Made by a program: the position numbers and the translations under genes
Part shown: piece after piece, positions 26,742 through 30,534 of the stretch
Layout: every line of letters begins with the position of its first letter
Numbering within the stretch: position 1 is the stretch's first letter
Notes under the pieces: model-generated
What the model saw: the letters and a program-made list of their open reading frames with translations, nothing else
What the model was told of the DNA's origin: nothing
The model's database searches: none
Source of the DNA: Mosigvirus mar005p1
Direction: 5' to 3' (one strand)
Sequence record: OZ035759.1
Length of the DNA: 64,000 nt

Positions 26742-27047
26742 TTATTTTCCTCGGCATTCTTTAATGAAATTTTCTAGATTGGTAGATTCAATAGCTTTTT
26801 TACGAGCTTCTGCGTGTTCTTCTTCGGACAATTTACGTTTATAATTGACCCAGACATTATGGTCGAAACCAGACGTGGCATATAATAACAAAGCTCCAAC
26901 GAATAGCAAAAATGGTGATAAAAATATACAACCAGGAACACCATCCATACTGTAAGCCTTTTGTAATACTGCAACAGAAAGAGTTGCGTAAAAAGGTGAT
27001 GCAAGTATTGTTAAAAGACCAATTCGATTGGTTTCTGTTAATTTCAT
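26742..27047 (-). CDS. membrane protein (101 aa), C-terminal FIKECR motif family
   Basis: Two TM helices; C-terminus ENFIKECRGK. Confidence 0.55.
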   Translation of the reverse strand: MKLTETNRIGLLTILASPFYATLSVAVLQKAYSMDGVPGCIFLSPFLLFVGALLLYATSGFDHNVWVNYKRKLSEEEHAEARKKAIESTNLENFIKECRGK

Positions 27048-28362: not shown

Positions 28363-28399
28363 ATAGGACTACTATAACATAGCCCTATCTTGTTGTAAA
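28363..28399 (-). promoter_or_regulatory. early promoter with TAGGACTA palindrome (copy 3, one mismatch)
   Basis: Same module upstream of the 28103-28354 gene. Confidence 0.6.
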
Positions 28400-28404
28400 C
28401 TGTT

Positions 28405-28602
28405 TTAGCAAGAATAACTAGATGATACCCAGCCTTGAACAGTGATACTATTGTGGGATAATGAGATCGCGTCCTGGAGATTCAGACCTGCGTTATCTTC
28501 AATCCATAATGTAACTTCTTCGCGTTCTTCTGTTGCAATTTGGAACAGGTTTTCCAGAGCAGCTACTGCCGTACGTACAGCACAATCTAATTCACGAGAC
28601 AT
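28405..28602 (-). CDS. small protein, WVSSS-x-C family paralog 1 (65 aa)
   Basis: C-terminus QGWVSSSYSC. Confidence 0.5.
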   Translation of the reverse strand: MSRELDCAVRTAVAALENLFQIATEEREEVTLWIEDNAGLNLQDAISLSHNSITVQGWVSSSYSC

Positions 28603-28611
28603 ATTGTTTCC

Positions 28612-28884
28612 TTAGCAAGTGTGAGAAGATGCGACCCAACCACCAGTTTCGAGGCTCAGGTTGTAGTCGTATTGGTAAACGTCGGCCCATTCAGCATAGC
28701 CGTTTTTTGTACAACGTTCAAGATCGGCTTTAAGATGTCCGGGTGAATGATAGGTTCCACCCATACCATAAGCTGGATACAAGTCGAATGTTGTGTTTTG
28801 TTTATCAGCAATTTCTTTGGCAGCCTCAATAGCAGCATAGATTTTTGCTACAGCTTCAGCCAGTTCGGTTTGTTCTTTAGACAT
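28612..28884 (-). CDS. small protein, WVSSS-x-C family paralog 2 (90 aa)
   Basis: C-terminus GGWVASSHTC; stop inside TAAGGAA SD of next gene. Confidence 0.55.
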   Translation of the reverse strand: MSKEQTELAEAVAKIYAAIEAAKEIADKQNTTFDLYPAYGMGGTYHSPGHLKADLERCTKNGYAEWADVYQYDYNLSLETGGWVASSHTC

Positions 28885-28893
28885 AATGATTCC

Positions 28894-29199
28894 TTAGCAC
28901 AACGCAGAAGACGAAACCCAAGCACCTTCAGTAATAACGTAACCATTACCTTCACGCTTAACATCGCCACCATTATTTTCAATTTCATCTTTCATCCACT
29001 GGGATACGATTTCACCCTTAGGATAATAAGTACGACCGCTACCATAATCACCTACAGAAAACGATACTGCATATTGGTCTGCGATCTTTGTTGCTTCTTC
29101 TTCGATACGTTCAGCTTGATTCAGAAGTTTATAAATTGCATCTGAAGCAGATTTGGCATCATTAAACTCTGGTACTTTAATTTCAATAATCTTACTCAT
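28894..29199 (-). CDS. small protein, WVSSS-x-C family paralog 3 (101 aa)
   Basis: C-terminus GAWVSSSALC; shares G(S/G)GRTYYPKG / GMGGTYHSPG region with paralog 2. Confidence 0.55.
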   Translation of the reverse strand: MSKIIEIKVPEFNDAKSASDAIYKLLNQAERIEEEATKIADQYAVSFSVGDYGSGRTYYPKGEIVSQWMKDEIENNGGDVKREGNGYVITEGAWVSSSALC

Positions 29200-29555
29200 T
29201 TTCTACATTCCTTAATAAAGTTTTCGATTGTTTCATTTTCACGTCTAGCTAGGAGTTCATTATAACTAATCATTTGAGAAGCGTAAACCTTTTTATTTTT
29301 CTTGTTATGGTTTATAAAATCATAGTAAAAATAGACTACAGTACAAAATGATGCGATGGATGCAAAGGCTTGGGTATACCGTAAGTCCTGCCATTGGTCT
29401 GTGAATCCGCCGGTATTCCCTATAAATCCTAACACAACTCCGTCAATAAGAAATCCAACTAATCCAAAGGCAAATCCCATGCCAATACCCATAATAAAAA
29501 TTAGAATGTTCTCACCAAGAGAAGGCCATACGGTTAAGAGTTGAGGCTTTTGCAT
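29196..29555 (-). CDS. membrane protein (119 aa), C-terminal FIKECR motif family
   Basis: Gly-rich TM helices; C-terminus ENFIKECRK. Confidence 0.55.
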   Translation of the reverse strand: MQKPQLLTVWPSLGENILIFIMGIGMGFAFGLVGFLIDGVVLGFIGNTGGFTDQWQDLRYTQAFASIASFCTVVYFYYDFINHNKKNKKVYASQMISYNELLARRENETIENFIKECRK

Positions 29556-29929
29556 CTTATTTCCTTAACGAATTCCATAGCTTCTTCATATTCATACTTT
29601 TTAACAGCTTCATCATACTGAGCTTGGGCTTTTGCGCACTGAACTTTCCATTCTCTTAATCGGGCTCTGTGATGACGGCCTTGGTGCCAATATCCCACCC
29701 AATTAATAGGCATTAATAAAAACGGTACAATAAGTGGTGCGACGAACATTAATGAAAATGCTGCATCAGACGATATAACTTTATTGGAATCTAAAACAGC
29801 TCCTATAATCATAAAGATTAAAAATGCTAAAGCTAAAATAGGGCCAAATAGTACTTCGTTTGGGATTAATTTACGTTTGTATTCGTATGCCCAGGGCTTA
29901 ATTGGCATGTACAGGGTTGGCTTTGACAT
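29534..29929 (-). CDS. membrane protein (131 aa)
   Basis: ATG at 29927-29929 (MSKPTLYMPIK); two TM helices; C-terminus EFVKEIRCK. Confidence 0.5.
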   Translation of the reverse strand: MSKPTLYMPIKPWAYEYKRKLIPNEVLFGPILALAFLIFMIIGAVLDSNKVISSDAAFSLMFVAPLIVPFLLMPINWVGYWHQGRHHRARLREWKVQCAKAQAQYDEAVKKYEYEEAMEFVKEIRCKSLNS

Positions 29930-30494
29930 ATTCTCTACATTCCATAATAAATTGCTCAAGGATTAAATTGTTAGTGAAATTAGGACTAACAACCATAGTT
30001 TCATAAAGCGCATCAATAGCACTTAAAGCATCAACTCTTTTAAGCAAAGGCTTGCCTTCATACATAGTTTCAGAATCGACGATTAAAGTGAAGTAGTATT
30101 TTTTATTATTGACCAGAACTTCTGTATCAATATAAAACATGTTAGACCTTAAAAGCTTGTCTCTAAAACCATAATAATCTTTAGAGCGTTCGCTGATATA
30201 TTCCCATTCAGTGTTTAAACAACAAACAGACCATGTAGGAGCAACGAAATCGGTGAATCTAATATCATGGTCTGCAACTAGTTTAGCAATAGCTCCGATA
30301 TCATGAATCATAATACCTGGGGCTAATAAAGATTTTCGGTTATTTGCATATTCAGTTGTCTCATAAGAAGACGACCAGTACCATTTACGTCCAGTTGCAA
30401 CATATCGTAATGAATCAACTAAAGACGTAGGTGGATTTACCTTATCTCGGAACTCTTCGAACATTGAGTCAATATCATTATTTTGGTTTCGCAT
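29898..30494 (-). CDS. hypothetical protein (198 aa), C-terminal FIMECR motif
   Basis: ATG at 30492-30494 with AAGGAG SD; C-terminus EQFIMECREYV overlaps next gene start. Confidence 0.55.
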   Translation of the reverse strand: MRNQNNDIDSMFEEFRDKVNPPTSLVDSLRYVATGRKWYWSSSYETTEYANNRKSLLAPGIMIHDIGAIAKLVADHDIRFTDFVAPTWSVCCLNTEWEYISERSKDYYGFRDKLLRSNMFYIDTEVLVNNKKYYFTLIVDSETMYEGKPLLKRVDALSAIDALYETMVVSPNFTNNLILEQFIMECREYVKANPVHAN

Positions 30495-30510
30495 GTTAAC
30501 TCCTTTATTA

Positions 30511-30534
30511 TCCAAAAGGAGGACCGGAGTCCTC
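30511..30534 (-). terminator. rho-independent terminator after coiled-coil gene
   Basis: Minus strand GGAGGACTCCGGTCCTCC followed by TTTTGG. Confidence 0.5.

Follow-up and report, generated by a model that had tools for sequence, protein, structure and literature searches.

The 64-kb window analysed here, i.e. the whole stretch of 64,000 nucleotides (nt) from Mosigvirus mar005p1 (sequence record OZ035759.1), derives from an RB69-like Mosigvirus (Tevenvirinae) and carries three consecutive small genes whose products of 101, 90 and 65 amino acids (aa) end in closely similar tails, followed on the same strand by a gene for a protein with DUF7277 and DUF7275 domains (Table 1). The small-gene region is 98-99% identical to many Mosigvirus genomes, in which the three genes are labelled as hypothetical proteins. 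The block sits between the e.2-side genes and e.3; in phage T4, e.2 and e.3 are adjacent and the block is not present between them, in agreement with the accessory region proposed in the original prediction, which was made from the letters of the window alone and described three consecutive genes with the tails listed in Table 1; these open reading frames (ORFs) and tails were confirmed. Our analyses place the small proteins in a large, phage-specific family of small acidic proteins, here called Cys-tail proteins, which is defined by a near-invariant C-terminal tail and by a near-constant position upstream of, and in the same orientation as, a DUF7277/DUF7275 gene.

Within the window, a six-frame regular-expression scan for W-[VIL]-x-S-x-x-x-C followed by a stop retrieved three sites only in 64 kb, all of them in the small genes, and neither this type of scan nor profile searches identified further tail-bearing copies in the window. 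Because such a tail is expected at about 2e-8 per ORF end (a rough, composition-based figure), chance is excluded as the origin of the three tails. The codons used in the tail are unlike among the copies (GTA/GTC/GTT for Val, TCA/GCA/TCG for Ser/Ala and AGT/TCT/TCT for the third Ser), and over their last 30-33 nt the copies have 58-73% DNA identity, roughly the level that encoding the same amino acids demands; therefore, the likeness of the tails is imposed at the protein level, as had been argued from the codon differences, and a recent nucleotide repeat, the explanation that would have undone this argument, is ruled out. Codon differences from other Mosigvirus copies gave synonymous to non-synonymous counts, summed over non-independent comparisons, of 15:1 for the 65-aa, 21:5 for the 90-aa and 20:2 for the 101-aa protein; orthologues were used for this comparison because the paralogues, at 26-34% identity, have saturated synonymous sites. 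All three are genuine genes evolving under purifying selection. The earlier description of the paralogues as diversifying did not hold, since the changes between orthologues are mostly synonymous and the three-gene array is kept, in the same order as in the window, across several T4-like genera. Two orthologues depart from the tail: in the RB69 reference, that of the 101-aa protein, RB69ORF139c (P0002), is annotated as 71 aa, has lost the tail and ends in ...QWYEK, and in phage mar005P1 that of the 90-aa protein, mar005P1_00006 (P0048), is 75 aa long and ends in ...TFTNTTTT. Both losses look like frameshifts or sequencing errors.

None of the three small proteins matched Pfam, NCBIfam or PADLOC, nor any Protein Data Bank (PDB) chain by sequence, which bears out the earlier statement that the family is not a recognized one. 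In PHROGs, the 90- and 101-aa proteins belong to phrog_899 (E-values of 3.5e-19 and 1.3e-22, respectively) and the 65-aa protein to phrog_4882, both of unknown function. Starting from word-indexed searches, a full HMMER profile search extended the family to 673 clusters at 50% identity (E-value of at most 1e-3), and nearly all matches run to the final residue of the protein. Cys is the terminal residue in 181 of 190 full-length members that were inspected, and a looser W...S...C tail pattern is present in 186; within the 181 Cys-ended members, Trp occupies position -8 in 179, and Ser positions -5 and -4 in 180 and 179, respectively. All three proteins of the window conform to the pattern W-x-[S/A]-S-S-x-x-C ending in Cys. 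For 103 of the 190 members, the terminal Cys is the only one in the chain. The members are small (median length of 89 aa) and acidic (isoelectric point (pI) of 4.2-4.8, median 4.5), and the tail stays close to invariant even where identity elsewhere in the protein falls below 30%. In some members (P0054 etc.), the tail motif is repeated within the acidic linker, e.g. RWESSSEGWESSSEGWVSSSSQC, and at least two W-x-[S/A/D]-[S/D] units are found in 41 of 194 family sequences.

Ahead of the tail, the family shows an N-terminal helix ending in I-A-D-x-x-G-x-x-F, a Y-G-x-G-x-T-Y-Y hairpin and a variable linker with abundant Asp, Glu, Gly, Ser and Tyr. Both the I-A-D helix end and the hairpin occur in the 101- and 90-aa proteins; the 65-aa protein, as judged from the alignment, consists of the N-terminal helix and the tail and lacks the hairpin. 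The proposed tandem paralogy is supported, with one qualification: a hidden Markov model (HMM) of the family built from distant representatives recovers the 90-aa protein at an E-value of 3.1e-21 and the 101-aa protein at 4.4e-19, whereas the 65-aa protein reaches an E-value of 0.3 only, being the third-best of 1273 ORFs under this model. It is counted here as a probable truncated family member on the basis of its tail, its position and the existence of similar short copies that other phages have at this same position. The AlphaFold2 model of the 101-aa protein (mean predicted local distance difference test score (pLDDT) of 90.2) has a helix-plus-sheet fold, in which an N-terminal helix of 29 residues is followed by a beta-hairpin, an extra helix and hairpin and then the tail; no structural match to this model was found in the PDB, including among solved DNA mimics and inhibitors.

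The feature that sets the context for the family is the gene downstream. This linkage was first met on two unrelated contigs with distant family members, in both of which a DUF7275 gene lies just downstream. Of 114 loci selected by the small gene, 84 contain a family member. Among these 84, 72 have the enzyme gene in the same orientation at a distance of 0-2 kb downstream, and the remaining 12 end before an enzyme gene could appear; the other 30 loci, in which the DNA pattern had been matched by chance and which served as controls, have neither gene. The enzymes of these loci form 27 clusters at 60% identity, 25 of which have one to six small genes upstream. When loci were selected by the enzyme instead, the HMM detected a small gene upstream in 71 of 80 viral contigs, corresponding to 16 of 20 enzyme clusters, and reading the four HMM-negative clusters by eye adds three (19 of 20), with the tails ...NWDSSTC, ...NWSSSSAHC, ...KWMHSDHSC and ...DDWDSSSANC. 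Jumbo-phage contigs of about 360-370 kb show the pairing as well, as do Acinetobacter phage AM101, Pseudomonas phage phiPsa315, Phapecoctavirus tuntematon and each of the four contigs from metagenome-assembled genomes having enough upstream sequence. The contexts thus covered, T4-like, rV5-like, Otagovirus and jumbo phages, differ in their surrounding genes.

The commonest arrangement is a single gene of the 'YGMGG' type abutting the enzyme gene, and the gap between small gene and enzyme gene is 4-100 nt in most lineages other than that of the window, where the enzyme gene is two genes downstream of the 65-aa gene and 330 nt away from it. The largest arrays comprise five or six tail-bearing genes around one enzyme gene in two viral contigs (L075 6084-9089 / L205, and L203), and in L075 one tail-bearing copy lies downstream of the enzyme gene. 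With regard to phage T4, neither the e.2-e.3 interval nor the 55-75 kb segment contains a small gene or an enzyme gene; T4 nrdC.11 (L125 436-1446), which is annotated as a nucleotidyltransferase, has no match to the DUF7275 profile and no Cys-tail gene upstream. In bacterial genomes, two strict peptide patterns returned five loci only, all of them in metagenome-assembled bins, a negative that is weak given the patterns used.

The enzyme itself occurs in 733 deposited phage genomes (tblastn), and two Acinetobacter phage records call it a putative nucleotidyltransferase. The residues G6, S7, D25, D27 and E69 are invariant across 39 aligned homologues and constitute the GS...DxD...E signature of Pol-beta nucleotidyltransferases, with 14-17 residues between GS and DxD. 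The C-terminal DUF7275 domain contributes further invariant residues in the same 39 homologues (H128, H174, D193, H194, D195, H198, C243 and C272), a His/Asp cluster with two Cys which suggests a possible second catalytic or metal site beside the nucleotidyltransferase centre. The AlphaFold2 model of the enzyme (pLDDT of 89.9) has MenT1 as its top structural match, with TglT/MenT3, MenT4 and ANT(2'') also among the best matches, at moderate scores. At an E-value of at most 1, Pfam returns DUF7275 and DUF7277 only and not DUF1814 (AbiEii), a profile search against PDB chains gave no match, and no equivalents of the Lys and Asp of MenT motifs III and IV were identified. Because the structural scores are moderate and a sequence link is lacking, the protein is described here as having a MenT-like minimal nucleotidyltransferase fold and not as a member of DUF1814. 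At 1-5 kb upstream of the DUF7275 gene lie genes for T4-type RNA ligase 1 and polynucleotide kinase-phosphatase in the jumbo-phage contig Ga0308168_1000032 (L005 689-3478), and a gene for an RNA ligase in Streptomyces phage Annadreamy (L115 1064-1723). Such neighbours may point to a connection with RNA or tRNA end repair.

As for the expression of the locus, the original prediction had every stop codon of the three genes embedded in a TAAGGAA ribosome-binding site of the next gene. This is the case at two of the three stops, which read TGC TAA GGA ATC ATT ATG and TGC TAA GGA AAC AAT ATG, but not at the stop of the 65-aa gene, after which come a hairpin and an early-promoter-like TTTACA-17-TATAGT, with no ribosome-binding site. 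In OL960576, a 99%-identical phage, this hairpin is annotated as a terminator, and a T4 middle-promoter-like site is annotated at the position equivalent to that of the site within e.3. The two promoter-like sites of the window, which are matches to a consensus, fit with an early expression of both the array and the enzyme gene. At the upstream end of the array, the start of the 101-aa gene overlaps the stop of e.3 in an ATGA.

Table 1. Features of the Cys-tail gene region in the window (positions are those of the whole stretch).
Feature	Position	Strand	Remarks
Early-type promoter-like site in e.3, upstream of the three small genes	29259..29287	-	TTTACG-17-TATAAT, 10/12; consensus match only
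Cys-tail protein, 101 aa	28894..29199	-	ORF; RB69ORF139c orthologue; 'GDYGSGRTYYP' type; tail GAWVSSSALC
Cys-tail protein, 90 aa	28612..28884	-	ORF; 'YGMGGTY' type; tail GGWVASSHTC
Short Cys-tail protein, 65 aa	28405..28602	-	ORF; RB69ORF136c orthologue; phrog_4882; tail QGWVSSSYSC
Early-type promoter-like site and hairpin, between the 65-aa gene and the 83-aa/enzyme genes	28371..28399	-	TTTACA-17-TATAGT with TG, 10/12; consensus match only
Intervening ORF, 83 aa	28103..28354	-	phrog_3723; outside the module core
DUF7277+DUF7275 protein, 318 aa	27118..28074	-	Predicted MenT/AbiEii-like minimal nucleotidyltransferase; conserved downstream partner gene

A separate observation concerns e.3 and its neighbourhood, where e.3, an e.4-like gene, an e.5-like gene and another 101-aa ORF (26742-27047, 29196-29555, 29534-29959 and 29898-30515, all on the minus strand) are small membrane-protein genes with a common C-terminal peptide (...ENFIKECR(G)K, ...EFVKEIRC... 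or ...QFIMECRE...). There, at least at e.3, the Lys-Glu codons AAGGAA double as the ribosome-binding site for the overlapping gene that comes next.

Taken together, the linkage to a downstream nucleotidyltransferase points to an enzyme-partner relationship rather than to the generic host-interaction role that had been suggested for the small proteins. Our favoured reading, which we put somewhat short of an even chance, is that the small proteins and the downstream nucleotidyltransferase-like enzyme form a two-part phage module in which the small proteins are partners whose tail serves as substrate or pseudosubstrate. No feature other than the tail is common to all paralogue types, including the 65-aa one, and the tail is therefore the likeliest contact with a common enzyme; likewise, a near-invariant tail on a drifting body, together with one enzyme per one to six tail-bearing proteins, suggests that the tail is what the enzyme recognizes. 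In such a scheme, the small proteins would bind the enzyme, the C-terminal tail would enter its active site as substrate or pseudosubstrate, and the hydroxyl of a tail Ser or the thiol of the Cys might be nucleotidylylated or phosphorylated, whereas the variable acidic body could provide a separate target or role for each paralogue in early infection, e.g. in host takeover or counter-defence.

Several observations weigh against this reading. The number of residues separating Ser-Ser from Cys is not constant in some short copies, ranging from 0 to 2 (SSC, SSxC, SSxxC), which is a poor fit to one rigid active-site geometry. No small gene could be detected beside the enzyme in Streptomyces phage Annadreamy, Vibrio phage KVP40 and a further viral-contig lineage (L164), the enzymes of the first two being shorter, at about 250 aa. 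In the window, the small genes and the enzyme gene are kept apart by the 83-aa gene together with a promoter-like site and a hairpin, so that a shared transcript is not required. In addition, a mirror-tree comparison of the enzyme with the adjacent small protein gave r=0.59 over all pairs, which fell to 0.03 among those with less than 60% enzyme identity, and the overall correlation therefore only mirrors the shared descent of close relatives.

The main rival holds that the small proteins act non-covalently, in the manner of antitoxins, to inhibit or activate a tRNA-modifying enzyme that is potentially toxic; they would bind this enzyme by the N-terminal helix while the tail only plugs the active site. 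We regard it as possible but rather unlikely. In its favour are the order of the genes, a small protein followed by a MenT-like enzyme as in MenA1-MenT1 (PMC10435456), the position of MenT1 as best structural match of the enzyme model and the long helix of the small-protein model, and the low pI of the small proteins is in line with MenT active sites having been described as electropositive (PMC7450476). On the other hand, MenA antitoxins have been described as diverse and MenT-specific (PMC10435456), whereas the tail described here is near-invariant across proteins of less than 30% identity, which is more suggestive of chemistry than of an interface for binding; as many as six copies per enzyme would be unexpected for a simple inhibitor, and a toxin-antitoxin pair has no obvious use in a lytic phage. 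Other accounts are less likely. One of them, close to the idea of the original prediction, is that the small proteins need no enzyme to act on targets in the host, e.g. by mimicking DNA or protein through their acidity and so blocking a defence or housekeeping protein, and that within an accessory island they are merely co-inherited and co-regulated with the enzyme. Their acidity, their linkers rich in Asp, Glu, Gly and Ser, the differing size of the paralogue arrays and the location of these, in various phages, in an early accessory region near counter-defence-type genes (Sir2-like, ADP-ribosyltransferase, MazG) would all be compatible with this account, but we consider it quite improbable because the linkage persists across phage contexts with differing neighbours, the model resembles no solved mimic or inhibitor and the invariant terminal Cys is left unexplained.

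Two further proposals start from the Cys itself, and we give little credence to either. S-x-x-C arrangements occur as ring-forming motifs in lanthipeptides. The Ser-Ser-x-x-Cys-COOH end of the small proteins recalls them and could, in principle, be a site of intramolecular cross-linking or of maturation as in ribosomally synthesized and post-translationally modified peptides (RiPPs), by a lanthionine-type ring formed through activation and elimination at Ser and subsequent addition of Cys, or by processing of the terminal Cys, with the adjacent enzyme, which carries the extra invariant His, Asp and Cys residues, supplying the activation. Nevertheless, the proteins are folded domains of 65-175 aa with a conserved core rather than leader-core peptides, the spacing from Ser to Cys varies, and the Pfam scans of seven window proteins (the three small ones with four neighbours) and of the jumbo-phage loci brought up no dehydratase, cyclase or decarboxylase, making such maturation very doubtful. 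The terminal Cys might otherwise be a metal or redox ligand, either in oligomers that assemble via the long N-terminal helix and share a metal or by completing a metal site of the enzyme, where invariant His and Cys are available; one conserved Cys per chain, as the final residue, would suit this role. Such a function is hardly to be expected of a small protein that offers no second conserved ligand, this Cys being the sole one in more than half of the members (103 of 190).

A more specific version of the substrate or pseudosubstrate reading, which we likewise regard as possible but rather unlikely, is that the Cys-tail proteins are carriers or effectors whose Ser-Ser...Cys end is covalently nucleotidylylated or otherwise processed by the MenT-like enzyme. 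The module would then represent a new modification system used in early infection by many unrelated lytic phages, with the arrays providing differently targeted versions of one modified tail. If the pairing is functional, it offers a cheap experimental handle on two large gene sets of unknown function, i.e. several hundred Pfam-less clusters and the DUF7277/DUF7275 proteins; it would also carry the combination of a minimal nucleotidyltransferase and a small neighbour, as in MenAT and HepT/MntA, over to lytic phages and to a new partner fold whose invariant terminal Cys is chemically suggestive, and could expose a phage strategy that acts on tRNA, translation or host immunity. In the literature, the coverage of which was incomplete, we found no paper naming the RB69 ORFs, DUF7275 or DUF7277, or describing their pairing.

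With respect to known families and systems, the proteins of the window match phrog_899, phrog_4882 and DUF7277/DUF7275, entries which carry no function. Acidic phage inhibitors and DNA mimics are known in the form of the Ocr, Arn and ArdA types. The Cys-tail proteins are similar to these in being small, acidic, accessory phage proteins of apparently early expression, the timing here being taken from consensus promoter matches. Precursors of lanthipeptides and of AviCys-type RiPPs, on the other hand, differ from the Cys-tail proteins, which are folded domains with a variable Ser-Cys spacing and which lie among scanned proteins containing no dehydratase, cyclase or decarboxylase families. A closer parallel is the HepT-MntA system (HEPN/MNT, type VII), in which the minimal nucleotidyltransferase MntA, whose motif is GSX10DXD, attaches three AMPs to a Tyr of the HepT signature motif (PMC7641770); there, a GS...DxD enzyme modifies a residue of its partner, a logic which is only proposed for the phage module. 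The phage small proteins have neither a HEPN nor any other Pfam domain and lack the RX4HXY motif, the candidate acceptors are Ser and Cys of the C-terminal tail, and 14-17 rather than 10 residues separate GS from DxD. The phosphorylation of TakA by TglT was dropped as a precedent because the literature gives the reverse, or antitoxin-induced auto-phosphorylation (PMC7641770, PMC11375011).

In MenT systems, the toxin arrests growth by lengthening tRNA 3' ends and its partner counteracts it. In terms of architecture, the phage module is most reminiscent of MenA1-MenT1 of Mycobacterium tuberculosis (DUF1814/AbiEii-type), in which the gene directly preceding that of a minimal nucleotidyltransferase encodes a small protein with a long helix (PMC10435456, PMC7450476); MenA1, a protein of 68 aa, blocks the active site and triggers auto-phosphorylation of MenT1 (PMC10435456, PMC11375011). 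The phage enzyme shares with MenT the Pol-beta motifs I and II (GS, DxD and a third acidic residue) and, as with MenA1, has the gene of its putative small partner upstream (PMC10435456). In contrast to MenT, the phage enzyme has no sequence link to DUF1814, is larger (about 300-350 aa) and carries the conserved extra C-terminal DUF7275 domain, and its putative partner has an alpha+beta domain, bears an invariant Cys tail and shows no relation to MenA1. Moreover, this partner is present in one to six copies in lytic phages, whereas MenAT is found on bacterial chromosomes. What is new, within an architecture that recalls known modules of a nucleotidyltransferase and its partner, is the family and fold of the putative partner, its invariant terminal Cys, the arrays of several copies and the occurrence in lytic phages.
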